Counted from the stretch's first letter, positions 25,298-63,529 are shown. The stretch is DNA of 64,000 nt from Candidatus Poribacteria bacterium (GCA_965204285.1 OZ241980.1:160235-224234), one strand, 5' to 3'. Numbers and translations: made by a program. Notes: generated by a model not told the origin, from the sequence alone.

Positions 25298-25440
25298 CAA
25301 TCTAACTCCTTTGGGATTTTATGAGTTGATTATTTCTGATGGATTATGCTATAGTATTGGCAAGGTTTGAAAATCAGAAATAGACAACTCGGATTTTCAC
25401 TTGAATTGGGAGGTTGCAGCCTCCCAATTTCATTGCGATA

Positions 25441-32669: not shown

Positions 32670-32692
32670 TGATTTTCCTCCGTGAAACTATA

Positions 32693-34630: not shown

Positions 34631-34665
34631 TTTCTGCCTCCTTATAGATAATATGCTTTAACCGA

Positions 34666-39883: not shown

Positions 39884-39903
39884 GACTGTATTAAGTTGAA
39901 GTA

Positions 39904-41298: not shown

Positions 41299-41483
41299 TG
41301 CTCAATATCTGCTTGTTTCAGAACGCTTTTGAGCGTACCTGTCGGGACATCTTTGCCCATTTTACCTGAAACTGTCACTTTCCCTTTTTTTGTTGGATGT
41401 TTAAAATAGCGATGACTGCCTCGTGACTTTGTATAATACCACCCATCATTTTCAATCAGTTTTATCAGTTCTCTAACCTTCAT
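41295..41483 (-). CDS. hicA: HicA-family toxin (mRNA interferase)
   Basis: MKVRELIKLIENDGWYYTKSRGSHRYFKHPTKKGKVTVSGKMGKDVPTGTLKSVLKQA is a typical HicA/YcfA sequence (GSH..F.HP...V.V..H...). Length is 62 aa. Confidence 0.88.
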   Translation of the reverse strand: MKVRELIKLIENDGWYYTKSRGSHRYFKHPTKKGKVTVSGKMGKDVPTGTLKSVLKQADIEQ

Positions 41484-41654
41484 AATCCAGTCTTCCTACA
41501 TGCTGCGGGAAAAAGCACGTAACATTCTCTAAAATATGTTATCAAGTTATTATGATTTGTCTCGTTTTGTGTTTCTCCGCACCAGCAGCAATAAGGTTAG
41601 TAGCAAGGACGCAGGGCACTGTCAGATTGCTTACCACCAAAACTGGATGTGTAT

Positions 41655-41684
41655 AGTATAGCATATTAGTAAAAAAGTTATCAA
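41655..41684 (-). promoter_or_regulatory. Candidate promoter for the hicA-hicB fusion-hsdR-DUF45 unit
   Basis: The minus strand reads TTGATA (41679-41684), an 18-nt spacer, then TATACT (41655-41660). The GTTATCAAGTT box recurs at 41541-41551. Confidence 0.4.
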
Positions 41685-41720
41685 GTTGTTAGTTGTCACT
41701 TAAACAAAATTCAGAATTTC

Positions 41721-42950
41721 TCATACGTTCATCTCAGCATCAATCAACGGCACGGCAGACCGCTGCCCTGTCATCAGTTCTTCAAGCATGGCGTGGAATA
41801 GTTCATCAATATGTTCAACTTCTTTTTCAAGGGCAGCAGTTTTTTCGTCAATTGTTCTAAAAATGTTGGCAATGGCACGTTGTTCGGGAAGTGGTGGAAG
41901 GGGTAAAACAAGATTGGTAAGTATAGGAATATTTACACCTCCCTTGAGTCTACCCCCTTTACTTTGTTCTATTTGTCGCCAATAGTTATTTGAACGAAAG
42001 TATTGCGCCAAAAAAACTGGTGACAGGTTGTCCTTCGTTTGCACACGAATTAGATATGACGCAAAAATTGCTTCTGGGCAATCGTCAATAATGTAAGCCT
42101 TTCCAGTCGTTGCACCAATTCGCGCAATTACTATATCACCAGTTTTTAACAAATACTTCTCCTTAGTTTTTTCACCACAAACGCAATAAGGAACCTTTTG
42201 CCAATTTACCGTATCATTTTGAATATCCGTAATTCTCAAAAATTTAGGACCTACAGCAGAATCATTGGCACTTTCAGTGTAACCGTAACCTGGTTTATAA
42301 CAGTAGTCGCCTAATCTCACAACTTCCCAACTTTCAGGCATCTCGCCGATTTCGGTTTGCTTGCGGGGTTCGCCTTTTGTGCCGTGTGAAAAGAGGTAAT
42401 CCATCAATGCTGCTTTGCGTTCACGCTCTAATACGATTTCGCGTTGTCGGGTGAATTTTGCTTCTTGGATTGTTTGTAAAGTGTGGGCGATGGCGCGTTG
42501 TTCGGGTAGCGGGGGAAGTGCTAAGGGCACCTGTTTCATCCTGCCCTGGTTCAGTTTTCCGCGAGTTGTTCCACTGATGAATGGTTTAATATTAAGATAA
42601 TTTAGTTGACACGTCAAAAAATAATTATGCGATAAGCCTTGTTTAGCCTGTAAAACATGGGCATGATTATTTACCCAAAATTTTCCACTCATCAAATAAG
42701 CTGAGTCTTCAAAAGAACCCCAGTACCCACCATCTTCAGCTAATAAAACATATTCACCATCAAATAGATAATTATTCACATGATCTACTACTCCATTTGC
42801 TCCGCAGTAAGGATATTCTCCTTGCATCTGTTGCCTTTGCGCCCCATTGATTGGGATTCTCTTTTTATTAAAGACATTTACTGCTTTTTCAAGTGGCATC
42901 ACTTTCCAATGTTCTGGGAAATTTATAACGTTCATTGCGTCCCTTTCCAT
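41721..42950 (-). CDS. hsdS: Type I restriction-modification specificity subunit
   Basis: Two target-recognition domains are separated by conserved helices, and LPPLPEQRAIA occurs twice. Length is 409 aa. An alternative start lies at 42935. Confidence 0.9.
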   Translation of the reverse strand: MERDAMNVINFPEHWKVMPLEKAVNVFNKKRIPINGAQRQQMQGEYPYCGANGVVDHVNNYLFDGEYVLLAEDGGYWGSFEDSAYLMSGKFWVNNHAHVLQAKQGLSHNYFLTCQLNYLNIKPFISGTTRGKLNQGRMKQVPLALPPLPEQRAIAHTLQTIQEAKFTRQREIVLERERKAALMDYLFSHGTKGEPRKQTEIGEMPESWEVVRLGDYCYKPGYGYTESANDSAVGPKFLRITDIQNDTVNWQKVPYCVCGEKTKEKYLLKTGDIVIARIGATTGKAYIIDDCPEAIFASYLIRVQTKDNLSPVFLAQYFRSNNYWRQIEQSKGGRLKGGVNIPILTNLVLPLPPLPEQRAIANIFRTIDEKTAALEKEVEHIDELFHAMLEELMTGQRSAVPLIDAEMNV

Positions 42951-42984
42951 TCAATCTAAGCGGACGGCACACGGCGTGTGCCTG

Positions 42985-44622
42985 CTACTTTGCATTCAAT
43001 CCAAGCTGCATCAAAACATCTTCCAATGCGTTATCCGCTTTTTCTCGGGCGATACTCGCTTCTGTTAAGTCTGCTAATATTTCATTCACTGCGCGGTGTA
43101 CAACTGCGTCACCGACATCTACAAACTGTGAAGGATTTAGATTGTAATCGGTTTTTTGTGCATCTTCAAGTGTGATAACGTTACTGAATTTCTCACGCGA
43201 TTCCCATGCTTCATATACTTCTGTTGCTGCTGTGATTCCTTCATCTGTTAGAACGTTTTTCGGTTTTCTTTTCTCAAAATACTGTGAGAGATTGATAAGT
43301 AGGAACTTTGCTTTGCGTTCCGCGGGTTTGTTGCGGTTTAGCAGCAATATAATGCCCGGTGCTGTTGTGTTATAAAATAGGTTTTCGGGTAGCAGGACCA
43401 CACCTTCAATTAGGTCTTTCTCAACAAACTTTTTGCGGATATCGCGTTCCCGATTGGTCTGTTTAGCACCGGAGCCTCGAGAGATTGCGCCGGTATCCAG
43501 CACAATTGCGGCGCGCCCGTTATCTTTCAGAGAGGCGAGCATGTGCTGCACCCATGCCCAATCTGCTGAGGAACTTGGTGGGATGCCGTCCGAAAATCGA
43601 TTCCAATTATCATTTTCATAAAAGTCATCGTCATATTCTTTCTGATTCCACATCGGATTTGCCAGCACATAGTCAAAACGTTGGAGTTTTGAATTGTCAG
43701 CCACGAAACGTGGATTGCGGAAGGTGTCGCCTATCTGAATATCTGCGCTGATAAAGTCGTGCAGAAAGGCGTTCATTTTTGCCATTGCGTAGGTTGTTGG
43801 CGTTAATTCCTGTCCAAATATATTTGGTGCTTGGCTTTTTTCTTGATCTGAATGCGTCTGCTCAAATTGTAATCTTCCTTTGATAAGCAAACCGCCAGAG
43901 CCACACGCAGGATCGTATATCGTGGTGTAGGGTTCAGGGTTAATAAGACGTGCCATTAACGCGCCGACCTCTTTCGGTGTGTAGAACTCACCCGCGCTCT
44001 GTCCTTGTCCTTCGGCAAACTTCCGTAACAGATATTCATAAGCACGTCCAAGGATATCTGGCTCCGCATCTTCAAGTCCAAGTTTATGTTGACTTATCAC
44101 CTCAATCAGTTTTTCGAGGCGATCATCGTCAATCAGTCGTTGTCCGCTCTGGCGTTCATTGAAATCTTCTACATCCAGTACACCTTGTAACCGAGGGTTA
44201 GCACGCGCAACCTCACGCATTGCATCGGTAACAAACTGTCCTAAGTTGCCGTCAGCGGGGTGGTTACGAAGTGCCTCCCAGCTATATTGCTGCGGAATAT
44301 AAAAACGCACAATCGGGTCGTCACGATCCTTTTCAAGTGCGTCCGCATGGTCTGCTTCAGTAATCTTTCTGGCAATTTCCTCATTTCCGAATTCTTCAAC
44401 GTGTTTTGCAAATTCGTCATCAAACACATCGGAGAGGCGTTTATAGAAGATTAGGGGTAAGATAAAATCCTTGAATTTTGGTGCGTCGGTTGCGCCGCGT
44501 ATTGCACAAGCAGCAGCCCATAGCCATGTTTCAAGTTTGGGTAAATCTAATTGTTCTTCGTTCTCGGCGAGAAGGGGAAGCGTGGTTTGGTCTGTATCTG
44601 TTGGGGACTTCTGTTTTGGCAA
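42985..44622 (-). CDS. hsdM: Type I restriction-modification N6-adenine DNA methyltransferase subunit
   Basis: HsdM N-terminal domain (LWAAACAIRG, FILPLIFYKRLSD). AdoMet motif I is IYDPACGSGGLL. Motif IV reads LANPMWN rather than the usual NPP(F/Y/W). Confidence 0.92.
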   Translation of the reverse strand: MPKQKSPTDTDQTTLPLLAENEEQLDLPKLETWLWAAACAIRGATDAPKFKDFILPLIFYKRLSDVFDDEFAKHVEEFGNEEIARKITEADHADALEKDRDDPIVRFYIPQQYSWEALRNHPADGNLGQFVTDAMREVARANPRLQGVLDVEDFNERQSGQRLIDDDRLEKLIEVISQHKLGLEDAEPDILGRAYEYLLRKFAEGQGQSAGEFYTPKEVGALMARLINPEPYTTIYDPACGSGGLLIKGRLQFEQTHSDQEKSQAPNIFGQELTPTTYAMAKMNAFLHDFISADIQIGDTFRNPRFVADNSKLQRFDYVLANPMWNQKEYDDDFYENDNWNRFSDGIPPSSSADWAWVQHMLASLKDNGRAAIVLDTGAISRGSGAKQTNRERDIRKKFVEKDLIEGVVLLPENLFYNTTAPGIILLLNRNKPAERKAKFLLINLSQYFEKRKPKNVLTDEGITAATEVYEAWESREKFSNVITLEDAQKTDYNLNPSQFVDVGDAVVHRAVNEILADLTEASIAREKADNALEDVLMQLGLNAK

Positions 44623-44948
44623 TGGAGACGCTCCTTTGATTTTACTATAGGTGAATTATAACATCTTTTTCCTAATAGAGCAATTGCATTTAAAAGCTGG
44701 GTGTTGTCTGAACAACGGGATACAATTACACCTCTTATAGTTAGTGTTCAAATTATAGACAATAATGTTCATATTATAACTATATTTCCCGATATTGCGG
44801 ACATAAATCGCTGTGATTCTATGCTCAACCGTTTACTGCAATTGGCATCGTATTTGCTACTATTTATTTTAGGATAATCAGTAACGAAATCGCTATCCAT
44901 TTATTCCCACAAATACCTTGAAATTTACATTGAAAAATGCTAAAATCT

Positions 44949-45964
44949 AACGTGAGTTTGATAAATAGTATTAGAAATTACATATCATTGGCAACTGATA
45001 GTCATTTTCTTTAAGTTCTTTATGTTTAAGTGAAGGTTTTTTCTGTAGACAGGTATAAGCGATCAAGGCAGCAACTGCATTCACTTGAAAGTTAACAGGA
45101 CTTCTATGGCGTGTGTGTTGTATCTCTGTCTGACTTTTAAGTTCTTTATTCACCGACTCAATAAGCATGCGTTTTTTTAGAAGTGCTGCATCAGCATCAG
45201 ACAAAGGTTCAGGTTTCATATTCTTACGCACCTTGTAAATGAGCGTCACACCGTCTTCTTGGAGTCTCTCCCGCAGATTTTTGTTGATATACCCTTTATC
45301 GGCAAATAGTTTGCCAAAGAGCCCTTGACACAACTGTGGCACGGTTCGCCTGTCATCTACGTTTCCCGCTGTCACCATAGCGGACAAGAGTTCACCTTGG
45401 TCGTTGATGACGAGATGTAGTTTAAACCCATAGAACCATCCCATAGAGGTTTTAGAACGCTCCGCATAATCAATGAAGACGCGATGCGCTGAAATCCGGC
45501 GATTGTGGCAGACCGGCAGCGGTGTTGAGTCTATGAAGGAAATGCCACGACACTTACCGAAACGGGTGTTGAGAAAAATAGACAACAAAACCAATACCTC
45601 TTGTGAGAGCTGCACAAAACGACTATAGCTGACAAGGTTCGGAAACGCCCAACGCAGATGGAAACAGACATAATCCTGATAATACGCTTTAAAGTTTTTA
45701 TACTGCTTCTGATGAAAAAGCACAAGTATCGTCATGACTTCGCTCGGATGAAGGCGCCGGGGTCTGCCCCGTGTGTTGTTTGTTCCGGGTATGTCCGGCA
45801 ACTGGTATTGTGCTTGATATTGTTCATACGTAAGAAAAAAGTCGTCAATTTCACAGAAAAGTGTTATGATATCCATCAGAGAACTCCTTTGTAAGTATAA
45901 TGGTATACTTCATCATAACAAAGGGGTTCTCTATTTACCAGTTTTTAATTATCAAACTCACGTT
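44949..45964 (-). mobile_element. IS982-family insertion sequence (1,016 bp)
   Basis: 16-bp perfect terminal inverted repeats: AACGTGAGTTTGATAA (44949-44964) and TTATCAAACTCACGTT (45949-45964). They are flanked by a 7-bp direct repeat AAAATCT (44942-44948 and 45965-45971). Confidence 0.85.
44971..45876 (-). CDS. IS982-family DDE transposase
   Basis: MDIITLFCEIDDFF...SEVMTILVLFHQKQYKNFKAYY...FIDSTPLPVCHNRR...GFKLHLVINDQGEL...ADKGYI is the typical IS982 pattern. Length is 301 aa. Confidence 0.88.
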   Translation of the reverse strand: MDIITLFCEIDDFFLTYEQYQAQYQLPDIPGTNNTRGRPRRLHPSEVMTILVLFHQKQYKNFKAYYQDYVCFHLRWAFPNLVSYSRFVQLSQEVLVLLSIFLNTRFGKCRGISFIDSTPLPVCHNRRISAHRVFIDYAERSKTSMGWFYGFKLHLVINDQGELLSAMVTAGNVDDRRTVPQLCQGLFGKLFADKGYINKNLRERLQEDGVTLIYKVRKNMKPEPLSDADAALLKKRMLIESVNKELKSQTEIQHTRHRSPVNFQVNAVAALIAYTCLQKKPSLKHKELKENDYQLPMICNF

Positions 45965-51465: not shown

Positions 51466-52251
51466 ATGATATTCCAGCACCTGATCACAGGTTTTCTTTT
51501 ATTATCATTGGTTACGTTGGGTGCCCAAGCACTGCCGCCAACATCCCCCGCGGGAGGGAAAATGCTGCACTTAGATAAAACTCACGATTATGTTGGCACT
51601 GGCGAGGCGTGGCTTCCTGGTGAACAGTTTGAACAGTTGACTGTTGAGGCATGGATTTACTTTGAAGAACCTCCAGGACCATCTAAATATTGGTCAGTCA
51701 TTGGTCAGGAAGGAAGATTCAATTTGGTTGTGACAGGTGGGGGTTCCTTAGGGTCTTGGGCGGCTCATCAGGACGCAGAAGGAAACGCTTCACTGACTGT
51801 TAACTCTTTACCGTTGCCTATAGGGGAATGGGTGCATGTCGTTGGAATGTACTATGCTAAAGCGGGCATGGGATTTAACGGCAAAGGCGGCATTTGGTGT
51901 TGTCCGGGTGGACATTTCGTCAAATCGTATAAGCCCTTACGTATTGGTGGCATCATTCCTAAAAATCAAGAAAAACCCCGTTTCAGTGGAGAAAATGTGA
52001 AATTTCAAGGGTATATTGATGAAGTGCGAATTTCGAATATTCTGCGATATCCGGATAGGAATTGGAAAATTCCGCAAAGAAAATTCAGTGAAGATGAACA
52101 TACTATTTCACTATGGCATTTTGATGAAGAATCTTTTTCCCGTCGTTATATGGATAAATCTGGAAACGGTTACGATCTCTGGAGAGGTGATGTGTTGCCA
52201 ATCTCTGCAGAGAAGAAACTTAGCGTTCTGTGGGGAGAGCTTAAGCGTTGA
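51466..52251 (+). CDS. Secreted LamG/concanavalin-A-like lectin-fold protein, tandem paralogue 1, with a C-terminal KLSVLWGELKR tail
   Basis: Signal peptide. LamG_3-like landmarks are present (LHLDKTHDYV, LTVEAWIYFE, WVHVVGMY, GYIDEVRISN). Confidence 0.75.
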   Translation: MIFQHLITGFLLLSLVTLGAQALPPTSPAGGKMLHLDKTHDYVGTGEAWLPGEQFEQLTVEAWIYFEEPPGPSKYWSVIGQEGRFNLVVTGGGSLGSWAAHQDAEGNASLTVNSLPLPIGEWVHVVGMYYAKAGMGFNGKGGIWCCPGGHFVKSYKPLRIGGIIPKNQEKPRFSGENVKFQGYIDEVRISNILRYPDRNWKIPQRKFSEDEHTISLWHFDEESFSRRYMDKSGNGYDLWRGDVLPISAEKKLSVLWGELKR

Positions 52252-52303
52252 ATTTTATAGTAGATTTTAGAATTAATTAAACACTGTAAACAAGCGAGGT
52301 CTC

Positions 52304-53113
52304 GTGCCTCAAGGTAAAAAGATGGTATACCGATTACTCATTACAAGTTTTCTTTTGGTAATATGTATTTTGCTAAATGCTCAAGCAGTGCCACCACCAT
52401 CACCTCAAGAAGGGAGGATGTTGCGGCTGGATGAAAAACACGATTATGTTGGAACCGTCGACTCGTGGTTTCCTGATGAACAGTTTGAGCAATTAACTAT
52501 TGAAGCCTGGGTCTACTTTGAAGAACCTCCAGGACCATTGAAATTTTGGTCAATTTTTGGTCAGGAAGGACGATTCAATTTAGTGATTGCTGGCAGTAAG
52601 GGTGTTTTAGGTTCATGGGCAGCTCACAATGGCCGAGGACAAGACGCTTCAATAACTGTTCAAATAAATCCGCTTCCCACAAAGCAATGGGTACACGTCG
52701 TTGGGATGTATTATGCCAAAGCAGGCATGGGAATTAACGGCAAAGGCGGCATTTGGTGCTGTCCGGGTGGACATCTCGTTAACTCAAATAAACCCTTTCG
52801 CATTGGCGGAATTGTTGTCCCGCAAGATCAACAAGCACCTCGTTTCGTTGGAGAAAATGTGAAATTTAGAGGATATATTGATGAAGTGCGAATTTCGAAT
52901 ATTCTGCGATATCCGGATAGGAATTGGAAAATTCCAGAAAGAAAATTCAGGGTAGATGAAAATACCATTTCACTTTGGCATTTTGATGAAGCACCTTGGT
53001 CAGGTCATTTCAAAGATGAATCTGGAAACGGTTATGACCTTTGGAGAGGTGATGCTATGTCCGTTGAAGCACAAGGGAAATTAACAACTAAATGGGGAGA
53101 ACTGAAGCGATAA
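52304..53113 (+). CDS. Secreted LamG/concanavalin-A-like lectin-fold protein, tandem paralogue 2, with a C-terminal KLTTKWGELKR tail
   Basis: It has the same landmarks as paralogue 1. GTG start; an alternative ATG lies at 52322. Confidence 0.75.
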   Translation: MPQGKKMVYRLLITSFLLVICILLNAQAVPPPSPQEGRMLRLDEKHDYVGTVDSWFPDEQFEQLTIEAWVYFEEPPGPLKFWSIFGQEGRFNLVIAGSKGVLGSWAAHNGRGQDASITVQINPLPTKQWVHVVGMYYAKAGMGINGKGGIWCCPGGHLVNSNKPFRIGGIVVPQDQQAPRFVGENVKFRGYIDEVRISNILRYPDRNWKIPERKFRVDENTISLWHFDEAPWSGHFKDESGNGYDLWRGDAMSVEAQGKLTTKWGELKR

Positions 53114-53139
53114 AATTCTTCAGGAGACAGTCCAAAGCA

Positions 53140-53871
53140 TTAATGCGTAAGTGAATAGATAACAGCATTGATACCTATTTTCAGTGCTATATTGGAGTAC
53201 TCCTTCGGATAATAATCTTCTGCGGCGTGTTCCCACGCATCACCGAGGTCTGAATTGAAACATATCAACATCATGAGTCGTCCTTTGTCATCAAATACGC
53301 CCATATATTTTGCTGGATGTCCATCATAGCGTTCATAAGTCTGTCCACTGAAAAGCGCACGAAGTCCAGGAATCTGTATCAGTTTTTCTATTCTAAAGAA
53401 ACATCGGAAAATCGGATGGGACACAGGGATTTCCACAGGTTCACGCTTTGGAAAGACTTTTTTGAATTCAGTATGAAACCTTTTCCATTCCAACCCCCCG
53501 TGAAAGTCGTCAACAAATATGAACCCGCCTCGTAAGAGATATTCACGCAAGTTTTTAGCATCTGTTTTGCTAAGCCGCATACTCCCCACTTCTAATAAAT
53601 AGGCAAATGGATAATCAAATAGTTCCTCTGACCAAACTGGAACAATTTTTCCGTCAGGTGCAGCATCAATACTGGTCTGTTTTCGGAGTTGGTAGATAAA
53701 ATTTCGGTCAGAAGCAGGAAAATCTACCTCCCAATTGCTCAACTGGGTGAGTTTGCCCCGATATTGCAGACGAACAAAGGTAAATTCAGCCTCTCGGTTT
53801 GCCTGCGAATCCAGAAGCGTGTTAGGGAAAAACGTTGTAATGAGAACGGTGAATGAGATTATAATTCGCAT
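53140..53871 (-). CDS. DUF4159-like secreted protein
   Basis: FTFVRLQYRG...W.VDFPASDRNF...LFDYPFAYLLEVGSMRLS...LREYLLRGGFIFVDDFHG...VFP...EIPVSHPIF matches my recollection of the DUF4159 pattern. Confidence 0.65.
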   Translation of the reverse strand: MRIIISFTVLITTFFPNTLLDSQANREAEFTFVRLQYRGKLTQLSNWEVDFPASDRNFIYQLRKQTSIDAAPDGKIVPVWSEELFDYPFAYLLEVGSMRLSKTDAKNLREYLLRGGFIFVDDFHGGLEWKRFHTEFKKVFPKREPVEIPVSHPIFRCFFRIEKLIQIPGLRALFSGQTYERYDGHPAKYMGVFDDKGRLMMLICFNSDLGDAWEHAAEDYYPKEYSNIALKIGINAVIYSLTH

Positions 53872-53877
53872 ATTTCT

Positions 53878-56277
53878 TTAAAAACCGTGATACCATGAAA
53901 AAGAAGTTTGGAAATCTTCCCATGAATCTAATGTTTTTGCTATATTAATTCTAAATGAACCTTCTTCTTGAAACTGTAAACCGATGCCTACATCTGCTTT
54001 TGGATTGAATGTGAACTTTTCATCTGATATATTCCAAACTTGTCCTTCGTCAAGGAAAAAGACAAGAAAGGCGTTTTTGAAAATCCTCCATTTTGACAGG
54101 TTTGCTAAACGGTAGTGATATTCAACGTTCAGTAAAAATCCACGATCTCCCATAAACGCATATTGTGAGTAACCGTACCATGACTTCGTAGACGCTCCTT
54201 TCTCAATATTGTTGGTGGGAACATATAATGGATAACCTCTCAACCCACCAAGACCGCTTATAACAAACTTTCTTTGAATCGGTAAGGATGTATCAGCAAA
54301 ACCGAAAAACAATCGTGTGCGGATACGGTTGTCGTCTAAAGGAAAGGCGTAGCGAAAGTGCAATTGAACCCGTGTAAAATCGAAATCAGAACCGACAACT
54401 GAGTTGCTATGCTCAACGAGGAGTGTATTATGCCATCCGAGGAAATCTACACGTGTATCAAAATCGTATTGAAAAGTGAGGCTTCGCATTTGGCCAGAGT
54501 CAATTGAAGGATTCTCTCTGGCTTCTAATTCTTTTATTAACCATTTTAATGTGTTCCAATTTGTACTTTTTTCAAGGCTTCTGTGTGATTCTACAAGCAT
54601 TCCCAATTTGAAGGAATGGGTCGGCATTGCAGGACTCCACCGTAAGGCAACCTCTCCCCCTTGTCTTAAATAATAATTTTGAAGGTCGGGATATCCAAAA
54701 ACACGCTGAAAGACAGATAGACCATGATTATAGTTTGGAAAAAGTTCAGGTGCCATCGCACTCGTTTGTCTGTGGAGTTGTGCAGTCAAGCCGAGATTCC
54801 ATATATACGGTTTTCCCCAGTTTGCTCTTGCCCCAAAACGATAATGAAAATGTGGATTTCCAAAGGTATAACTAATCTTTCCAAATAGGTTATAGGTTTG
54901 CGTGTTCAAAGAATCCTGCACGTTCCACATCCACAAAGGACCGACATCAATTGGTTTTCCCATCTGAAAGCCAGTGCCAATTTCCCAATTGGTTACACGG
55001 TTAAATCCCAAAAACAGCGGCGGACGAAGTCCAAGATAGGCATTTGAGGAGAGGCGTTTTTCATCAACGGTAATCGTTGCAACACGGGTAAAATTCTCTT
55101 CGGTGACTTTTAGGTTGATCTTTTTAAAATAGGGCATCACTTTAAACAGCGTTTTCAGTGCCTGTTCAATATTTTCAGAACCGTTATTAAGTGTTTGGTG
55201 GATACGTTCTTCTGAAATTTGCTGATTTCCTTGAATACGTATTTCATGAATAGGTGCGTCTCCTGCTCTGAATCTTGTCGCTGCGTGGAGGAATAACTCA
55301 TCGGTCTCAAGACTTGTAATGGTCTTTTTGATATTTCGATTTGCACCCGATTGTGTGATTGTTAGAGACTTAAGAATTGATAGTGATTTTGATGACCTCC
55401 GACGGTTCTCAACAGTAAGGATAGCAATGCTTTTTCCTTTCTCCTCTGTGATGCGAACAGATATTTTTCGACGATTACCAAGCGATTTGATAATCATTGG
55501 CAGCACATTTTCCAAGTCACCTGATCCGCTTTTCAGAAATTTTAAGATGTTGGTTCTTTCTGGACTTTTCGTGTTCTGAATTACGAAATCATGAATCTGA
55601 ATCCCTTCAAATTTCCAAGATGATGCTACTAAGGGTGTTTGTGAATCTACATCTAAAATATTAAGACTTTTCTTTTCTTGGACAGGTCTACTTGGACCTG
55701 TTGTCTTTGAAGTTGATGGATTAGGTACAGGCACTGCAGTTTCAGATGATGGCTTAGGTGGTGCGACAATTGTGTCTGGTAACCTCCGAAGTTTTTTCAA
55801 TTCCGGTATATCAATACCGAGTTGATTTAGATGTCGTAACAAATCTCCAATCTGCTGCGGTGGAATCTCACCTATTATATTTATGAGATATACACCCTCT
55901 CCGCTGTTGATGATAACAAAGATTCCAACAATGAAATTTCCTTGCTTAAACGTGTAAAGGGAAAATCTGTTACTTTTTTGATATGCGTTCCATCCGCGTG
56001 CTGGTAATCTATTCTTGTAATACTGCAGCATCTGTGGATAATTTAAGCCTTTTCTATGATAATTGCGTAGATATAGGTTGTCCACCGTCTTATACAGTGA
56101 AGCAATTTCAGCATTCGGGTTTTCCATTATCTGCGTGATGATGCGGCGGTCCAAATCAAATTTAAATTGGGCAGATGGCGCATTAGGCCAATTGAAAGAT
56201 ACTTTTCCTCTACCTTTTTGTGCGCTTACAGTCCCGCAGAGAAGGAAAAAACACATTACGATGACAACTTTTTTCAT
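53878..56277 (-). CDS. Omp85/BamA-superfamily outer membrane protein, paralogue B, with an atypical N-terminal domain
   Basis: Signal peptide. The ~160-aa N-terminal domain is shared with paralogue A. A POTRA-like segment (IHEIRIQGNQQISEERIHQTL) is present. The C-terminal surface-antigen beta-barrel ends in an aromatic residue (SFSWYHGF*). Confidence 0.8.
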   Translation of the reverse strand: MKKVVIVMCFFLLCGTVSAQKGRGKVSFNWPNAPSAQFKFDLDRRIITQIMENPNAEIASLYKTVDNLYLRNYHRKGLNYPQMLQYYKNRLPARGWNAYQKSNRFSLYTFKQGNFIVGIFVIINSGEGVYLINIIGEIPPQQIGDLLRHLNQLGIDIPELKKLRRLPDTIVAPPKPSSETAVPVPNPSTSKTTGPSRPVQEKKSLNILDVDSQTPLVASSWKFEGIQIHDFVIQNTKSPERTNILKFLKSGSGDLENVLPMIIKSLGNRRKISVRITEEKGKSIAILTVENRRRSSKSLSILKSLTITQSGANRNIKKTITSLETDELFLHAATRFRAGDAPIHEIRIQGNQQISEERIHQTLNNGSENIEQALKTLFKVMPYFKKINLKVTEENFTRVATITVDEKRLSSNAYLGLRPPLFLGFNRVTNWEIGTGFQMGKPIDVGPLWMWNVQDSLNTQTYNLFGKISYTFGNPHFHYRFGARANWGKPYIWNLGLTAQLHRQTSAMAPELFPNYNHGLSVFQRVFGYPDLQNYYLRQGGEVALRWSPAMPTHSFKLGMLVESHRSLEKSTNWNTLKWLIKELEARENPSIDSGQMRSLTFQYDFDTRVDFLGWHNTLLVEHSNSVVGSDFDFTRVQLHFRYAFPLDDNRIRTRLFFGFADTSLPIQRKFVISGLGGLRGYPLYVPTNNIEKGASTKSWYGYSQYAFMGDRGFLLNVEYHYRLANLSKWRIFKNAFLVFFLDEGQVWNISDEKFTFNPKADVGIGLQFQEEGSFRINIAKTLDSWEDFQTSFSWYHGF

Positions 56278-56296
56278 CGGAATTCCTTATGACTTT

Positions 56297-57391
56297 TCAT
56301 TTTTCTATTTTATTCAACTGTTGTTTTAAGTTTTTCAACGCATCTGGAACGTCCGGTTTACCGGGATGAAAAATCACCTCAGGTGGAACAATCTGTCTCG
56401 GACGGTTCGGTGGTTTGTAGAACCATCGCAGAGCAATCTGGTATCTTGGGCCTTGGAAATAGTGTATCTCAACAGGATGAAATCCCGCTGAAAGCGTGTG
56501 ATAGGCTCTTATGCTTCGTGGACCGTGAGTTCCATCATTGTCAACAACTAAATTTCCGTTAATGTATAACTTTGCCCCATCATCTGAAAGCAGCTCAAAC
56601 ATATATGTGCCGGGCGTATCCACTGCCAATTTGCCACGGAAATGTATAGCAAAGTTTTCAAGTACAGTTTGCTTCTGAGGTGTAGGAAATCCTTCAGTAT
56701 AAGGTCTGGCAGGGACATCCAAATTAGCTGCTGCAAAAGTGTAAAGGGGAGTTATCCGTTTAAAATCAGGCATAAAATGAATTGGACCACCGGGAATGTA
56801 GACCTGACCAATTAATCCGTGTCCAGGTTTTACATCAGAGTCAAAGATACCGAGCCCCATGATGCCCTCATCCAAACCTATTGAAGGGAGATCATCTACA
56901 CCTGTTCCACGTGACAATCCTTTGCCGATGCCGGTGCCTGAGCCGCCACGCCCAGGACCACGTGCGTTTCCGCCTGCTCCACGGTATTCAGGGACGACAA
57001 CAGGTCCCGCTGCTTCAGCATCTTTCCCGAAACTCGTGTTTGGTAGTGAGGCAGCATCCGTTTGTGGTATATCAGCAAAAGTGACTATTTCAGGTGCAAC
57101 ATCATCAAAAACCGGTGCTTTTGGAGGGTTCATCTCCGAGTCATACTTTGGGGCTGCGCGCGAAAGGGCAGGAGACCCGCTATCGGTACGCCGCTTCGGT
57201 TCCACCGCTTTGTGTTGGCGCATGACACGCCGTTCCACCCGCTCAGGAGTACTCGCCTTAAAAAACGTAAGTGAGATCTTATTATCTGTTTCATTGATAT
57301 GTTTTACCAAAAACGGTGATAAAATTAACAGCAAAACGAAATGTATCCCTAAAGAAATTAGAAGAGAGATTTTGCTTCTCTGTTTTTTCAT
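56297..57391 (-). CDS. Inner-membrane-anchored TonB-like N-terminus with a Pro/Gly-rich linker and a C-terminal PA14 domain
   Basis: TM helix ISLLISLGIHFVLLLILSPFL. PA14 signature: GLIGQVY...ENFAIHFRGKLAVDTPGTYMFELLSDDGAKLYINGNLVVDNDG...LSAGFHPVEIHYFQGPRYQIALRWFY. Confidence 0.75.
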   Translation of the reverse strand: MKKQRSKISLLISLGIHFVLLLILSPFLVKHINETDNKISLTFFKASTPERVERRVMRQHKAVEPKRRTDSGSPALSRAAPKYDSEMNPPKAPVFDDVAPEIVTFADIPQTDAASLPNTSFGKDAEAAGPVVVPEYRGAGGNARGPGRGGSGTGIGKGLSRGTGVDDLPSIGLDEGIMGLGIFDSDVKPGHGLIGQVYIPGGPIHFMPDFKRITPLYTFAAANLDVPARPYTEGFPTPQKQTVLENFAIHFRGKLAVDTPGTYMFELLSDDGAKLYINGNLVVDNDGTHGPRSIRAYHTLSAGFHPVEIHYFQGPRYQIALRWFYKPPNRPRQIVPPEVIFHPGKPDVPDALKNLKQQLNKIEK

Positions 57392-57446
57392 CGATCAATC
57401 TACCCCATTATTTGTGTTACAGAAACAACTGAATTTTAAACAAATC

Positions 57447-59753
57447 CTAAAAACTGTAGAAAAACATAAAATTGAATTGAATACCTTGCTCAGATTCAAA
57501 TGCTTTTGCAACATTGAATCTTAAAATATCAACCTCTGATGCAATCTGTAGACCGATACCAGCGCTTGCTTTCGGTTTAAACTTCCAACCACTGTCCAAT
57601 TCATTCCATACCTGTGCCTGATCATAGAGGAGTACCAAATGCCAGTTTTTCAGAATATTAATGTTGTTAATATCAATATTGGGTAAACCTAAAAGTAATT
57701 CGATATTAAATAGATAACCTTCATCTCCAGCAAAAGTATATAACGGATATCCGTTCAGTGTACCAATTCCACCAATAATAAACTGGCGTTGGATCGGTAA
57801 GAGTGCTGTACCGCTATGATCTTCAGCAGGTTTGCCAACAACTGAACTCATCACAAATCGGGAGCGGAGTTGATTATTACCGAAGGGATAAGCATTTCGC
57901 AGATGTGTTTGAAAACGAGTCCAGTTAAAATCAGATCCGAAGTTGCGGTTGCTATGTTCAACGAGGAAAGTATTGTGCCAACCGAGGTAATTGTTTCGGT
58001 TCTTATAATCGGTTTTGAACCGAATACTGTGCATGTTGCCTGGTGTGATTACAAGGTTTTCTCGCACTTTTGATGATGACCGCCAGTTGAGAAGATGCCA
58101 ATCAGTCGTTTTTTGGAGGCTGTCGTGTGTTTCCCAAACCAGTGAGACAACTGAATAAATTGCTCTATTCAGTTGCCCATGCAACGCTATCTCTGCGCCC
58201 TTTCTCAAATAGTAGTCTTGATGATCTGGCACTCCAAATAGGCGTAGAAACAATGCCCCTGTCTCATTATAGCCAGCGTAAAGATCCGGTGCAATTGTAG
58301 TTGTTGCGCGCTGGAACTGTGCGGTTAACCCTAAGTTCCAATTGTTGTGTTTACCCCAAATTCGGTTACCACCAACACGGTAATAGAGTTCTTTATTTCC
58401 GAATCCGTAGCCAAACTGGGCAAAGAGTTTTGAGTTATCTTTTTCAATTGGAATGTTAGAATACCAGTCGAATTCAAATGGGGTGATACCTTTCCTATTT
58501 TGAAAGCGCGATCCGGTTTCAACACGAGCACCAAGTTCCCAGCCAGTGACACGATTAAATCCTATTCGTGGAATTGTATTTATATACCCCCTAAAAGATA
58601 GCGGTTTCTCATCAACAGAAATTACTGCAATCCGTTGTTGACCATTTTTTTTAATTCCAACGTGAGCATCTTCAAATTCCGGGATAGACTTAGACAGTTT
58701 CTGTGTAGCCTCTTCAATTTCTATAGGTCCATTTTCAAGTGCCATTATTATCGTGTCAATTTCAATGGACTGATTTCCCTCAACCTGAATCTCGTCAATG
58801 ACGTTTCCGTCGTGGGTTAGATACCTCTTTGAAAGCGGTATTAGACCGTCTTCATCTGGTATATCATCCAGGTGTATTTTTACCCACTTTTCACCCGTAT
58901 TCACGGTGACTTTTTGCACAAATTTCGCCACATCTGAATTCGATAATTTTTTTAACAATACCGTCAGGTCTTCTGAACCTTCTTTAGGTACGATATTTCC
59001 GAAAAAAACGTCTTTTACCGCATTCACTCTCTCTTTATGGTTGATGCCCTCAGTTTTCGTCCGTGATTGTATCTGAATCTCTTGAATTGGTTGTCCACGA
59101 TAAGTCCAATCTGCAAAATGCGTCTCTTGCACTGATCCTGAAAACTGGACAAACGGGTTTGATGAATCTTTTGAAATACGAAACATAGTTACCGGCTTTT
59201 TATCCAGCAATATCTCTTCAGTCTCTGATATCACTGTTTCCGTCTCAACACTTGGTAACTCAATGGTTTCACCGAGCGCTCTCAATTCAGGTATCCAAAT
59301 ACCGATTACATTTAGGTTTGCTAACAGTTCACCTATTCGTTCTTTTGGAATCTGTCCAACGACGTTGAGCAGATGTACCCCTGTCCTACCCTTGACAACA
59401 GCAAAGATACCTCTGCAGATATTTTCTGATGCCGTTTCGGTAAGAATAGAAATTTGCCGGTTTTCATCCTTAGCGAAACTTTCCCATTCATTATCCTGTA
59501 ACTTCTCACTATAATATCGTACAAATTTGTCAAAAAGACCATCTTTAGTATCGTACGTGTGGACATATAGATTTTCAACAGCATTAAAAGGTTCGTCAGT
59601 GGAGATAAGCGAGATCAATTCTCGATCCAAGTTAAATTGAAACATTGCACGCGGCACATCAGGACAATCAAATGGGATCGCTCCATTAGGTGATTGTGCA
59701 TGCAATAGTGCTGTTCCTGTAAGTAGCAGGAATGCAAAAATAGTTATCTTCAT
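57447..59753 (-). CDS. Omp85/BamA-superfamily outer membrane protein, paralogue A
   Basis: ATG at 59753 gives the signal peptide MKITIFAFLLLTGTALLHAQ. The ORF-track GTG at 59780 is less likely. The architecture matches paralogue B. A POTRA-like segment (IDEIQVEGNQSIEIDTI) is present. The barrel ends in FNFMFFYSF*. Confidence 0.8.
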   Translation of the reverse strand: MKITIFAFLLLTGTALLHAQSPNGAIPFDCPDVPRAMFQFNLDRELISLISTDEPFNAVENLYVHTYDTKDGLFDKFVRYYSEKLQDNEWESFAKDENRQISILTETASENICRGIFAVVKGRTGVHLLNVVGQIPKERIGELLANLNVIGIWIPELRALGETIELPSVETETVISETEEILLDKKPVTMFRISKDSSNPFVQFSGSVQETHFADWTYRGQPIQEIQIQSRTKTEGINHKERVNAVKDVFFGNIVPKEGSEDLTVLLKKLSNSDVAKFVQKVTVNTGEKWVKIHLDDIPDEDGLIPLSKRYLTHDGNVIDEIQVEGNQSIEIDTIIMALENGPIEIEEATQKLSKSIPEFEDAHVGIKKNGQQRIAVISVDEKPLSFRGYINTIPRIGFNRVTGWELGARVETGSRFQNRKGITPFEFDWYSNIPIEKDNSKLFAQFGYGFGNKELYYRVGGNRIWGKHNNWNLGLTAQFQRATTTIAPDLYAGYNETGALFLRLFGVPDHQDYYLRKGAEIALHGQLNRAIYSVVSLVWETHDSLQKTTDWHLLNWRSSSKVRENLVITPGNMHSIRFKTDYKNRNNYLGWHNTFLVEHSNRNFGSDFNWTRFQTHLRNAYPFGNNQLRSRFVMSSVVGKPAEDHSGTALLPIQRQFIIGGIGTLNGYPLYTFAGDEGYLFNIELLLGLPNIDINNINILKNWHLVLLYDQAQVWNELDSGWKFKPKASAGIGLQIASEVDILRFNVAKAFESEQGIQFNFMFFYSF

Positions 59754-59905
59754 GGCGGATATTGACAGTAACTCACCCACTCCAACGTTGATCTGTTGTG
59801 AATCAAGCAGTATCTATGGATTCATACCGAAAGGATTATCGTTAATACAAAATATTAATGATAAAGTTACAAACCTAAACGAGTATTTTCGCTATGGTGT
59901 TTACA

Positions 59906-59935
59906 ATTTTAACAGATTAAGGGTTTTGTTGTCAA
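59906..59935 (-). promoter_or_regulatory. Candidate promoter for the Omp85 operon
   Basis: The minus strand reads TTGACA (59930-59935), an 18-nt spacer, then TAAAAT. Confidence 0.3.
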
Positions 59936-60144
59936 ATTTTGGCGTTTATATTATCAACTCCGAGGTAAATAAGTGAAAAGATTTAGCATCATTTCGCAGT
60001 TCTGGTTTCGCGAGTGAGATCTAAACTTATAAAATAACTCAAATTGCTACCTACAAGATTTTAGACAGGCAAACACCGTTTTTAATAGAGGATATTCATA
60101 TTTTGCAAGATTTCGTAGGGTAAACTGTCAGTTTGCGCACTAAG

Positions 60145-60435
60145 ATGCACAATCTAAATGAAGATTAAATAAATATTTCGGTAATTTCTTTAGTCCCGTA
60201 GGGACGATATGTTTATAGAAATGTGAAGGACCACCTTTCTTGAGTTCCGTAGGAACGGTATATTTATTGTTGATGTGCTTTAAAACATATCGTCCCTACG
60301 GGACTAAGGGAGGTGATGGTCTCTGCTGCTATAAACATATCGTCCCTACGGGACTGAAAGCTTAACATATTCCGAATATGCATAATAGGAAATTACCGAA
60401 TTAATAAATTAATCTTCATACAGTTTGTGCTACAT
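60145..60435. repeat. Imperfect palindrome of about 290 nt containing four copies of a 25-nt sub-repeat
   Basis: The left arm ATGCACAATCTAAATGAAGATTAAATAAATATTTCGGTAATTTC...AGTCCCGTAGGGACGATATGTTTAT matches the reverse complement of the right arm apart from a ~30-nt indel. Sub-repeats are direct at 60192-60217 and 60243-60268, and inverted at 60281-60305 and 60331-60355. Confidence 0.75.
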
Positions 60436-60513
60436 AGGTGGCAACTTGGATTAAAATAATGTAATATATTTGGACAGATTTTTAGTTATGCTTGTACAGG
60501 AACCATCTGATAA

Positions 60514-60544
60514 GAAAAAAGGCACGCATGGGGATCGTGTGCCT
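60514..60544 (-). terminator. Intrinsic terminator (member of the GCGTGCCTTTTT hairpin family)
   Basis: The minus strand reads AGGCACAC-GATCCCCAT-GCGTGCCT followed by TTTTTT. It lies downstream of the gene ending at 60628. Confidence 0.6.
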
Positions 60545-60627
60545 AAGGTAAGCTCTTGGTCAAGTCGATACGGTATTGGAATGAGTGGCAGCTTATGTAG
60601 TAGTGGATTACCGTTCGCTACATCACT

Positions 60628-60915
60628 TTATGTATGCTGTTGGGTGCTGATGACGTTAGACTTAGTTTCAGAATCATCGCTATTTTTATCAGGTGTGTCT
60701 GGTTGTTCTGTGTCCGTAAGGTCTATTTGGGGCATTTCTACTTGTTCTGCTCCTGAAGGTTTTTCCATGCGCTGCATTTCCACTCCGGGGTCAGTATCCA
60801 CGGGTTGGAGGTAAGCCATTTGGTTTTGGAACCACAAAAAGCATCCCAGTGTAAAGATTAGTATGAAACAAGTTCCACCGAGAATCCAATTTTCTATTGT
60901 AAATTCTTTTAACAT
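60628..60915 (-). CDS. Small membrane-anchored acidic protein
   Basis: An RBS (AGGAG) lies about 6 nt upstream. TM helix ILGGTCFILIFTLGCFLWF is followed by an acidic tail. A terminator lies downstream. Confidence 0.55.
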   Translation of the reverse strand: MLKEFTIENWILGGTCFILIFTLGCFLWFQNQMAYLQPVDTDPGVEMQRMEKPSGAEQVEMPQIDLTDTEQPDTPDKNSDDSETKSNVISTQQHT

Positions 60916-61228
60916 CTTTTTCTCCTATTCATATCTTCTGCGGTATCCGCTGAATTTTGACACTTTATTTAAATTATCTCGGTTAATCATTAGACAAGTA
61001 AAGGAACATTGTGTTCACGAAAACTAATTATTTGATATTCGGATTTTCAATCAATTCTTCTTTCCTTTAAACCTTCTGTTATTAAAGACGCATTTGTAAA
61101 CAAAAAGATTGCACTTTTTCAGAAAAATATGCATTTTTTCGGTAAAAAAGTGATTTTTGTGTGATTTTTTTATGAAAAGTCAATAAAATCAGATTTTGGA
61201 ACGTGTTGACAAGCAGATTTTTGTTAAA

Positions 61229-61255
61229 TAAAAAGGCACGCATCAAAGCGCGCCT
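61229..61255 (-). terminator. Intrinsic terminator (same hairpin family)
   Basis: The minus strand reads AGGCGCGC-TTTGAT-GCGTGCCT followed by TTTTT. It lies about 75 nt after the stop at 61331. Confidence 0.65.
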
Positions 61256-61330
61256 AAATGATTATGAGATTTTATTGCCTTTCAAAAGTCATAGTGTTCA
61301 GGAATTTCAGTTAATAGAGGCGAATATTCG

Positions 61331-63529
61331 TTAGAATGACTTTTTTTCTACATCAGGGTCAAGTTCTTTTGCCTTTGCAAGGTCTGCTTTTGCTTCTTCA
61401 TGCTTGCTGAGTGCTTGCTTTGCCAGTCCTCGCTCGTAATAATAGAGGGCATCATCCGGTTTAATTCGTATAGCCTCATCAAAATCCTCAATTGCATCAT
61501 TATAGTCACCAAGAGCAGCTTTTGCTGTAGCACGAGTGTGGTAGGTGGCAGCACTTGGATTATCTTGTTGTAGACGAATTGCTTCATCACTGTCGACTAT
61601 TGCTGCGTGAAAAAGATTCTTGGCTTCTTCTGTATTTCCCTGATCGGTTTCTAATTGTCCAAGGAGATATTTCGTCCATCCTCTGCCATTATAGGCATCT
61701 GTGTATTTAGGGTCAAGTTTGAGGGTTTTAGTATAATCTTCAATAGATTGTTGATATAGGACTCTGGCTTCATCCATGTTCCCTTGACCTGCTTTTAATT
61801 TACCAAGACGGTAATTCGCTAAACCACGATTGTAGAAAGAAATAGCGTACTCTGGGTCAAGTTTAATGGATTCAGTATAATCTTCAATAGACTCTTGAAA
61901 GTATCCTTCAGCACCAGATACATCTCCATCATCCGCATTGGAAATACCAAGTCGTTGTTTTGCATACGCGCGTTGGAAGTAGCCAGTATCGCTCTTAGGA
62001 TTCAATTGAATTACTTTATCGTAATCCGAAATCGCTTCTTCATAATCGCTAAGTTCGCGTTTCGCAAGACCACGATTAAAGTAACAACTTCTATTCTCAG
62101 GGTCTAACGTGATGGCTTCAGAATAGTCATCAATTGCCTCTTGATAATATTTACGAGCATCAGTTTTTTCACCTTGTTTCGCTTTAGATCTACCGAGGTC
62201 ATACTTTGCACGCCCACGACTGTTGTATGCCTCGTCGTCTTTCGGGTTGGATTGTATGACTTTGTTGTAGTCTTCAATTGCGCCTTCATAGTCACGATTG
62301 AAACGTTTTACATCTCCTCGATATGAATAAACATTCAATAATGGGTTGGGTTCAGGATTTAGGCTGATCATTTTGTCAAAGTCTTCAATTGCGCCAGCAT
62401 AGTCGTCCAAGACAGCCCGTACATTTGCGCGAGCGAAATAGATTTCTGCTGCGTTCGGATTGAGTTTTAAGGCAATATTATAATCGGCAAGTGCCTCTTC
62501 TTGTTGTTCTGAATCAAATTTGGCAGCAAATTTTGCGGATGCTCTGATGACATAGGCCTGAGCAAAATCAGGATCAAGTTTGAGGGCAGCATCACAGTCA
62601 GCAATTGCCGCATTGTGTTGATCTAATGATAAGTTCGCGGCGGCTCGGTTGATATGTGCCTCTACAAAATCGGGATTAAGTTTGATGGCGGAATCACAGT
62701 CAACAATGGCATCTTCTGCTTCACCCATTAAAATCTTTAAGCCTGCACGATTGGCGTATATCTCCACTGAATTTGGATTGAGTTCAATTGCAGCATCAAG
62801 GCATTTTAACGCTTCCATGTGGTTACCTTGCCTCATATTCATCTGGGCTTGCACAACTTCGGCAAAACCTTGTACACGTGGAAGTTTTTGCCATTCATCC
62901 AACGACATCATTTCTACCGCGTTCGCGAGTAAAAACTGTAAAGCACTTACGGGAATCGCGTGACTCGTAGACAAAGTTGTTCCACCACTAAACATCAATA
63001 TGCTTGCGGCAGTACCAACAGCAACACCTATGACCTCACCCATGCTATTTAGGACAGCACCGCCACTATATCCGGGAGCAAAATCCTCTTTAATTTGTAA
63101 ACGTTTATCACTATGTCTAATGCCTTGCAGTGTGATTTGTGTAACTACACCTTCTTTTCCTCCAGGATACCCTACCGCACAAAAAATATCGCCAATCTGC
63201 ACTGTCCCACTATCGCCGAAGGGCAGCGGCGTTTCTGCACCAGCAACTTTTAAAATGACAAGGTCGTTTTCAACATCAAACGCCACCACACCTTCAATAG
63301 AGAATTCCGTTTTTGTACTAACGAGTTCCGCAAAAACGGACGGTGCTCCTGCAATACAGTGAATATTTGTTACAATTAGGTTTGGACCGACAAAGAATCC
63401 ACTACCCCGTGACCAGATAAGGCGTTTACCAGATTCTTCGTCAGTTTTTTGCCATACCACACGCACAACAGATTCTGTTAGGGCATTTTCTCCGATTTGC
63501 TGTAATTTTTCGTCTCTTGTTTCTTTCAT
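61331..63529 (-). CDS. Trypsin-like serine protease domain fused to a long TPR array
   Basis: N-terminal S1-like domain (GSGFFVGPNLIVTNIHC; DLVILKV; GYSGGAVLN) followed by about 14 TPR units (repeated A..Y..AI.L(N/D)P......Y..RG). Confidence 0.8.
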   Translation of the reverse strand: MKETRDEKLQQIGENALTESVVRVVWQKTDEESGKRLIWSRGSGFFVGPNLIVTNIHCIAGAPSVFAELVSTKTEFSIEGVVAFDVENDLVILKVAGAETPLPFGDSGTVQIGDIFCAVGYPGGKEGVVTQITLQGIRHSDKRLQIKEDFAPGYSGGAVLNSMGEVIGVAVGTAASILMFSGGTTLSTSHAIPVSALQFLLANAVEMMSLDEWQKLPRVQGFAEVVQAQMNMRQGNHMEALKCLDAAIELNPNSVEIYANRAGLKILMGEAEDAIVDCDSAIKLNPDFVEAHINRAAANLSLDQHNAAIADCDAALKLDPDFAQAYVIRASAKFAAKFDSEQQEEALADYNIALKLNPNAAEIYFARANVRAVLDDYAGAIEDFDKMISLNPEPNPLLNVYSYRGDVKRFNRDYEGAIEDYNKVIQSNPKDDEAYNSRGRAKYDLGRSKAKQGEKTDARKYYQEAIDDYSEAITLDPENRSCYFNRGLAKRELSDYEEAISDYDKVIQLNPKSDTGYFQRAYAKQRLGISNADDGDVSGAEGYFQESIEDYTESIKLDPEYAISFYNRGLANYRLGKLKAGQGNMDEARVLYQQSIEDYTKTLKLDPKYTDAYNGRGWTKYLLGQLETDQGNTEEAKNLFHAAIVDSDEAIRLQQDNPSAATYHTRATAKAALGDYNDAIEDFDEAIRIKPDDALYYYERGLAKQALSKHEEAKADLAKAKELDPDVEKKSF

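Follow-up and report, generated by a model that had tools for sequence, protein, structure and literature searches.

Wherever outer membranes are built, proteins of the Omp85 superfamily drive the process, and the partner arrangements in which they are understood are few (the machinery for beta-barrel assembly (BAM), the module for translocation and assembly (TAM), two-partner secretion (TPS), and PlpD). Ten Omp85 subfamilies were described by Heinz and Lithgow in 2014, including a 'BamA-like' subfamily with one to three POTRA domains (PMC4104836). In known Omp85 proteins, the arginine of the L6 motif and the aspartate of the strand-13 motif form a 'lid lock', and the strand-13 motif begins with F in BamA and TamA and with G in FhaC, a distinction between insertases (FxDxG) and TpsB proteins (GxDxG) (PMC4490367). 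The patatin-Omp85 protein PlpD (type Vd) is reported to keep its N-terminal domain periplasmic and to form dimers (PMC11116518). The present analysis concerns a stretch of 64,000 nt from Candidatus Poribacteria (the window, meaning the whole stretch at its full length), in which a minus-strand cluster at 53140-59780 encodes two Omp85 paralogues (A-type and B-type), a protein ending in a PA14 domain, and a DUF4159 protein. The cluster is tentatively read, with confidence a little short of even, as a conserved accessory Omp85 machine, distinct from the housekeeping BamA and known so far in Poribacteria only. It adds to the described systems a phylum-wide arrangement that brings together an asymmetric paralogue pair, a new head domain, and an inner-membrane partner bearing the signature of a TonB/TolA anchor, and it represents a core envelope feature of the Poribacteria, which are uncultivated symbionts of marine sponges. 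No description of this Poribacteria cluster system was found in the literature.

In transcription order, the cluster consists of the genes for the A-type Omp85 (57447..59780; 777 aa counted from a GTG at 59780), the PA14 protein (56297..57391; 364 aa), the B-type Omp85 (53878..56277; 799 aa), and the DUF4159 protein (53140..53871; 243 aa), all of which, like every cluster feature located below, lie on the minus strand. The open reading frames are separated by 55, 19, and 6 nt, exactly as an earlier note on this DNA had stated. The A-type protein more likely starts at an ATG at 59753, where the product begins with a typical signal peptide (MKITIFAFLLL...), than at the GTG at 59780.

Paired Omp85 proteins compared with described systems

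Both Omp85 proteins match PF01103 well above the Pfam cut-off of 24 (42.0 bits for one and 42.1 bits for the other), at aa 574-773 in the A-type and aa 547-788 in the B-type protein, and they are 33% identical over their whole lengths, with the N-terminal ~160 aa aligned as well, which agrees with their previous recognition as paralogues of ~780-800 aa sharing an N-terminal domain. The A-type protein (57447..59780) is composed of a signal peptide, a DUF4252-type domain, a linker, a POTRA-type region, and a barrel ending in Phe, while the B-type protein (53878..56277) is composed of a signal peptide, a DUF4252-type domain, a linker, two POTRA repeats, and a barrel with a C-terminal Phe. The N-terminal domain was assigned with the DUF4252 profile (PF14060), which scores just under its cut-off of 23.9 bits in the window proteins themselves (22.5 bits for the A-type domain at aa 41-152, 59325..59660; 20.0 bits for the alpha/beta domain of the B-type at aa 30-160, 55798..56190, modelled with predicted local distance difference test (pLDDT) values of 75-89) and exceeds it in some orthologues and paralogues (24.8 bits in P0039 and 50.3 bits in P0256). 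Many orthologues carry precomputed DUF4252 matches, and stand-alone DUF4252 proteins align to residues 5-165 in a library-wide search.

The earlier note had described a single POTRA-like segment between this head and the barrel, a description that has to be corrected. AlphaFold modelled the B-type protein poorly as a whole (mean pLDDT 58) but was confident for the three N-terminal units, and a disordered linker of ~50 aa (residues 167-218) is followed by two beta-alpha-alpha-beta-beta units (~221-291 and 337-406). The corresponding sequence segments, repeat 1 at aa 221-295 (55393..55617) and the barrel-proximal repeat 2 at aa 336-410 (55048..55272), align to each other with an hhalign probability of 99.2% (E 1.8e-19), and the Pfam POTRA family PF07244 matches above its cut-off at the position equivalent to repeat 2 in the orthologues P0039 and P0059. 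Since the repeats are homologous by profile-profile alignment and are recognised as POTRA in orthologues, the protein has two tandem POTRA repeats, and the same number is assigned to its A-type paralogue. Variants of the A-type protein of 650 aa have lost POTRA repeat 1 and kept the DUF4252 head. The Omp85 barrel region of the B-type protein (PF01103) occupies aa ~420-799 (53881..55020). The top Foldseek matches of the B-type model are TamA (8us1, 1.3e-5) and BamA, a link that comes from the fold search only, as the Omp85 alignment profile found no match among PDB sequences at E<=0.01.

The signature motifs of the barrel differ between the paralogues. The L6 motif, which PMC4490367 defines as (V/I)RG(Y/F), reads LRGY in 67 of 84 B-type copies and is intact in the window, and the strand-13 motif, (F/G)xDxG, reads F[LFI]DEG in 75/84 (FLDEG in the window). 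The A-type proteins, in contrast, carry LNGY in 62 of 64 orthologues, with loss of the signature arginine, and their strand-13 motif is variable (LYDQA in the window, xxDxG in many other copies). Because the B-type keeps the lid-lock motifs and the A-type is without the arginine, the pair is asymmetric in a fixed way.

Whether these proteins are simply the BamA of the phylum can be judged from profile scores and from the wider family. The BamA model TIGR03303 gives 33.3 and 37.5 bits on the window proteins against an NCBIfam equivalog cut-off of 297, and the TamA model gives 31 bits against a cut-off of 625. With two POTRA repeats rather than five and with scores this far below the BamA cut-off, neither paralogue appears to be a canonical BamA, an identity that the earlier note had considered for one of them. 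Among 1.84 billion representative proteins searched, just 320 matched at E<=0.001, and every one of the nearest relatives with a source name is from Poribacteria. These relatives include small Omp85 proteins with one POTRA, a third paralogue with the order DUF4252-CBM9-Omp85, and proteins of 1100-1209 aa (P0305, P0307/P0527, P0294, and P0520) that have an N-terminal toastrack domain (LiaG/LiaX-like), CBM9, several POTRA matches, and an Omp85 barrel. Three of the large types (P0305, P0307/P0527, and P0294) match the BamA model across POTRA and barrel with 68-119 bits, and one is encoded on the same 7.03-Mb chromosome as the cluster locus L074; none was found within the window or the cluster loci. 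By their sequences, the large multi-POTRA proteins look more like BamA than the two window proteins do, and if the toastrack-CBM9-POTRA proteins are indeed the BamA of the phylum, then its BamA architecture is itself unusual. It could still be argued that the housekeeping BamA of Poribacteria is one of the paralogues, or both, with lineage-specific BAM accessory proteins as neighbours, given that the cluster occurs in nearly all sampled Poribacteria, that the B-type lid lock is of the BamA/TamA type, that NCBI annotates the proteins as 'BamA/TamA family', and that Bacteroidota BAM complexes have unusual extra subunits (according to PDB titles). The low scores, the two repeats, and the existence of the larger candidates in other Poribacteria make this explanation very improbable.

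Amongst the described subfamilies, the cluster Omp85 proteins fit best beside the 'BamA-like' subfamily (PMC4104836), judging from their sequences. They share with it the small number of POTRA domains, the Omp85-type barrel, the lid lock (FxDxG and RGY, in the B-type), and, by extension from relatives, a probable occurrence alongside a more BamA-like protein. They differ from all ten subfamilies in adding a DUF4252 head on a ~50-aa linker, and from the 'BamA-like' subfamily in forming a fixed A/B pair with arginine loss in the A-type and in having fixed PA14 and DUF4159 partners. As in the TAM, a reduced-POTRA Omp85 is encoded beside a protein that has an N-terminal inner-membrane helix and is able to cross the periplasm, and TamA is the top structural match of the B-type. 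Instead of the DUF490/AsmA-like TamB, however, the partner combines a disordered spacer with a PA14 domain; the POTRA repeats number two and not three, there are two barrels, and the TamA model score is low. The earlier statement that the architecture departs from BamA, TamA/TamB, and TpsB/TpsA is thus upheld by the profile scores, the two POTRA repeats, and the motifs.

The systems of type V secretion provide the remaining comparisons. Like PlpD, the cluster proteins place a non-POTRA head N-terminal to POTRA and an Omp85 barrel (16-stranded in PlpD), and like TpsB/FhaC they have two POTRA domains before the barrel, with weak ShlB-family matches in A-type orthologues. In contrast to PlpD, the head is DUF4252 in place of patatin, the POTRA repeats are two, extra operon partners exist, and the pairing would probably join paralogues rather than form a homodimer. 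Unlike TpsB/FhaC, the strand-13 motif has the F/L form and not GxDxG, there is no plug helix, and the N-terminus is a DUF4252 domain; no gene for a TPS-domain substrate is present in the cluster, and the ShlB/FhaC barrel family PF03865 has no Pfam match in the window proteins and matches weakly in orthologues only. These likenesses allow a type V-like secretion or display system, in which the DUF4252 head, the PA14 protein, or the DUF4159 protein passes the barrels to become a surface lectin or adhesin. The head-linker-POTRA-barrel order as in type Vd, the two POTRA as in TpsB, the ShlB/FhaC matches in A-type orthologues (24.3 vs 22.7 bits in P0246; 20.4 bits in L060), the CBM9-type modules on related Poribacteria Omp85 proteins, and the frequency of PA14 domains in surface adhesins all speak for export of this kind. 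It nevertheless seems quite unlikely, as the PlpD head is now reported to be periplasmic (PMC11116518), the TPS-domain partner, plug helix, and GxDxG motif are lacking, and the anchor of the PA14 protein looks uncleaved and carries a conserved polar motif.

Conservation of the four-gene unit

A species-level scan with one genome per bacterial and archaeal species yielded 78 distinct cluster loci, all from Poribacteria. The closest proteins to the cluster members are likewise from Candidatus Poribacteria (up to 91% identity), and the public sequencing runs that contain cluster sequence are sponge samples; an exact-sequence look-up of the window DUF4159 protein found no record, with the same outcome for P0439; the PA14 protein of the window does have a record. 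The cluster genes are co-oriented on a single strand in 78/78 loci, and the synteny noted in the window is conserved in relatives across the phylum. The DUF4159 gene lies directly 3' of the B-type Omp85 gene in 73 of 75 testable loci, the PA14 gene lies immediately 5' of it in 68 of 73, and the upstream second Omp85 is present in 61/68. The most frequent order is Omp85-PA14-Omp85-DUF4159 (28 loci), and the same order was recovered in two Mb-scale contigs from independent gene calls and precomputed Pfam matches. Some variant loci have an extra PA14 or a second DUF4159 gene; PA14 accompanies the A-type barrel in a sub-module at L074, L080, and L054, and DUF4159, placed after the B-type, follows the A-type too in some clades. 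The strong conservation of the unit indicates that the four genes are functionally linked. The flanking genes (e.g., holA and the LamG genes) are common to close relatives only and differ between clades, which argues that the cluster is retained for its own sake.

Upstream Omp85 copies best match the A-type of the window and downstream copies match the B-type. Because this assignment holds by position across loci, the duplication is older than the sampled radiation. The best-conserved member of the cluster is the DUF4159 protein (64-96% identity across the phylum), which matches PF13709 over nearly the entire profile (positions 2-202 of 202; 174 bits, E 3e-51) and has a hydrophobic N-terminus that could be a signal peptide, in line with its previous description as a DUF4159-like secreted protein. 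Its sole solved relative is PDB 4i66, an uncharacterised structural-genomics protein (Hoch_4089). Two lineage-specific insertions were observed within the cluster, a gene for a 1056-aa fusion of an extracytoplasmic function (ECF) sigma factor with a BNR/sortilin-type propeller (L060, 5362-8532) and a gene for a 661-aa WD40 protein (L017, 8004-9989).

Several observations bear on transcription. No terminator-like sites were found between the four genes, and a candidate sigma-70-like promoter lies upstream of the first gene (59906..59935, minus strand; TTGACA, an 18-nt spacer, TAAAAT, and an extended -10 TG). It is the top site of the region with 11/12 consensus positions, and it is a consensus match only. 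For a strain that is ~90% identical, contigs from four marine metatranscriptomes span all four genes and bridge 3/3 junctions, with similar and low depth over the genes (5-15), coverage that is consistent with one transcript. These contigs carry no strand information and may include carried-over DNA.

The DUF4252 domain extends beyond the cluster. It is also fused to toastrack and DUF5694 domains, and its occurrence in varied fusions and operons indicates that it behaves as a movable envelope module. At L081 (8174-13683), an operon encodes an ECF sigma factor, a zf-HC2 anti-sigma factor, a stand-alone DUF4252 protein, the DUF4252-CBM9-Omp85 paralogue (824 aa), two unannotated proteins of ~175 aa, and a DUF5694 protein. 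As a probe of Omp85-DUF4159 linkage beyond the phylum, P0256 was rejected, being another Poribacteria paralogue.

The PA14 partner and the proposed function

In the AlphaFold model of the PA14 protein, an N-terminal helix (residues 2-35) leads through ~155 disordered residues to the PA14 sandwich, and a short helix forms the C-terminus. The membrane helix (aa 8-29, 57305..57370; hydropathy 2.49) contains the motifs S13-x3-H17 and S25-P26-F27; S13 and H17 are invariant in the alignment, and SxxxH is present in 96/96 copies of the protein across loci. This S-x3-H motif is the signature of the TonB (S16 and H20 in Escherichia coli) and TolA anchors, through which they engage ExbBD and TolQR. The predicted disordered periplasmic spacer (aa 30-189, 56825..57304; pLDDT 24-39) is rich in small residues and proline (G 13.5%, P 9.7%, A 9.7%). 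The PA14 beta-sandwich (aa 190-340, 56372..56824) matches PF07691 at 63 bits (E 3.6e-17, cut-off 24) and contains the invariant triplets D270-D271-G272 and N285-D286-G287, and the combined DDG..NDG pattern is present in 89 of 94 copies. The D-D-G presumably corresponds to the Asp-Asp site for calcium and sugar in PA14 lectins. The closest solved PA14 is the polysaccharide-sensing domain of the membrane anti-sigma factor RsgI3 (3e-16; Foldseek match 6qe7, 1.4e-9), and the fold is also near the sugar-bound structures of the Marinomonas primoryensis lectin MpPA14 (Foldseek). Each part of the protein that was first read from the sequence, namely the TonB-like N-terminus, the Pro/Gly-rich spacer, and the C-terminal PA14 domain, is thus supported by the 96/96 conservation of SxxxH, spacer pLDDT values below 40, and the PF07691 match, and both partner assignments, PA14 and DUF4159, pass profile searches.

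Sequence and model together support the view that the PA14 protein has the build of a periplasm-spanning anchored protein of the TonB/TolA type. Its single N-terminal helix with S-x3-H and its long Pro/Gly-containing spacer resemble those of TonB and TolA, and its C-terminal domain would be placed to contact the outer membrane. The differences are that this domain is PA14 instead of TonB_C or TolA domain III, that no ExbBD/TolQR genes are adjacent, and that the outer-membrane partner would be an Omp85 and not a TonB-dependent transporter.

The same protein could instead belong to an envelope tethering or sensing module, in which it would act as a TolA-like or RsgI-type reader of a glycan (peptidoglycan, envelope polysaccharide, or host polysaccharide) while the DUF4252 heads signal to ECF sigma/anti-sigma pairs. 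The relationship to RsgI3 fits such a module, as do the occurrence of S-x3-H in TolA, the operon that combines the third Omp85 paralogue with ECF sigma, zf-HC2 anti-sigma, and DUF4252 genes, and the ECF-sigma fusion gene of L060, which lies between the A-type Omp85 and PA14 genes at a place where a gap of about the same size is seen in L061 and L062. The PA14 protein, however, has ~7 cytoplasmic residues and no cytoplasmic domain, hence no anti-sigma domain; the core cluster is without a sigma or anti-sigma gene in most loci; and two full POTRA-bearing Omp85 barrels are hard to account for as anchors. A module of this kind is accordingly considered unlikely.

Under the reading of the cluster as an accessory Omp85 machine, the four proteins would work together. 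The B-type barrel, with its intact lid lock of the BamA/TamA kind (FxDxG), would be the one active as insertase or translocase, and the A-type barrel, having lost the lid-lock arginine, would be a specialised partner, possibly in a heterodimer with the B-type (compare the homodimers of PlpD). The DUF4252 heads and POTRA repeats would reside in the periplasm. A periplasmic head and a barrel pair are plausible because the PlpD head is reported to be periplasmic and PlpD to dimerise (PMC11116518). The PA14 protein would be anchored in the inner membrane and span the periplasm, with its PA14 domain docking on a glycan or on the periplasmic domains of the Omp85 proteins, and the DUF4159 protein may be a periplasmic accessory factor or cargo paired chiefly with the B-type barrel. 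As a whole, the module would insert or export a certain set of components of the envelope or the surface. If the S-x3-H helix engages a motor of the ExbBD/TolQR type, the outer-membrane pair could be coupled to the proton-motive force. A bolder and doubtful proposal, held with low confidence, is that a TonB/TolA-type transducer whose C-terminal domain has been swapped for a PA14 lectin drives or gates a heteromeric Omp85 pair, with DUF4159 as a dedicated periplasmic factor and DUF4252 as a head for docking that ECF sigma-linked envelope proteins also carry.

A number of results weigh against these functional assignments. No cargo for the module was identified, a literature search found nothing on DUF4159, and DUF4252 is mentioned in six papers, in none of which it figures in the title or abstract. 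The B-type barrel is modelled with low confidence (pLDDT mostly <60), too weak for a strand count, and the metatranscriptome contigs are assembled as well as unstranded, and carried-over DNA could contribute to them. TonB_C is absent from the PA14 protein, in which Pfam sees PA14 alone and the model ends in a sandwich and one helix; no exbB/exbD or tolQ/tolR genes are adjacent to the cluster, either in the window or in the loci with Pfam annotation; and S-x3-H by itself does not prove motor coupling. Of the dedicated trans-envelope device postulated in the earlier note, the conserved linked unit, the domains, the architecture distinct from BamA, TAM, and TPS, and the TonB/TolA-type anchor are supported, and the detail of a single POTRA is wrong. 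Should the accessory-machine reading be correct, the cluster would provide the first functional contexts for DUF4159 and DUF4252, both of which are widespread and without assigned function. Transmission of energy or signals by the PA14 partner would bear on how processes are powered at the ATP-free outer membrane, and the transducer proposal, if true, would represent the first coupling of the proton-motive force to an Omp85 insertase or translocase.

Flanking regions and other features of the window

Upstream of the cluster, the intergenic region 60190-60360 contains a short palindromic repeat, GTCCCGTAGGGACGATATGTTT, of which three exact copies (both strands) and one variant are present, where the chance expectation is none. 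The depth of the metatranscriptome contigs is 50-570 over 59816-60300 as compared with 5-15 for the genes, with inverted joints present. The region could represent a multi-copy element similar to repetitive extragenic palindromic (REP) sequences or a highly expressed small RNA; a search of Rfam over 52900-61400 gave no match. Further upstream, a gene at 61331-63529 (minus strand) encodes a 732-aa fusion of a trypsin-like protease with a long TPR array, and a terminator-like hairpin directly downstream of it (61255-61234) separates it from the cluster. This gene and a 95-aa open reading frame upstream of the cluster were rejected as cluster members, since they are found beside the cluster in nearer clades only. 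On the other side, two paralogous secreted Laminin_G_3 (concanavalin-like) proteins are encoded convergently at 51466-53113 (plus strand), 26 nt from the DUF4159 stop. The LamG genes were considered as conserved partners or cargo and rejected, as an iterative search found relatives in just 5/78 loci.

Elsewhere in the window, a 2160-aa open reading frame at 13256-19738 (minus strand) has a weak, below-cut-off match to SprA_N (type IX secretion/gliding translocon; E 4.7e-5). Also present are an IS1595-type transposase gene (24410-25300) and a type I restriction-modification system (HsdR, HsdS, and HsdM; 37010-45876) with a HicB-like/DUF6575 gene inside it and a DDE transposase gene beside it. 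A resistance-nodulation-division (RND) efflux operon at 29418-35928 (minus strand) encodes an outer-membrane factor, an HlyD-type adaptor, and an AcrB-type pump.

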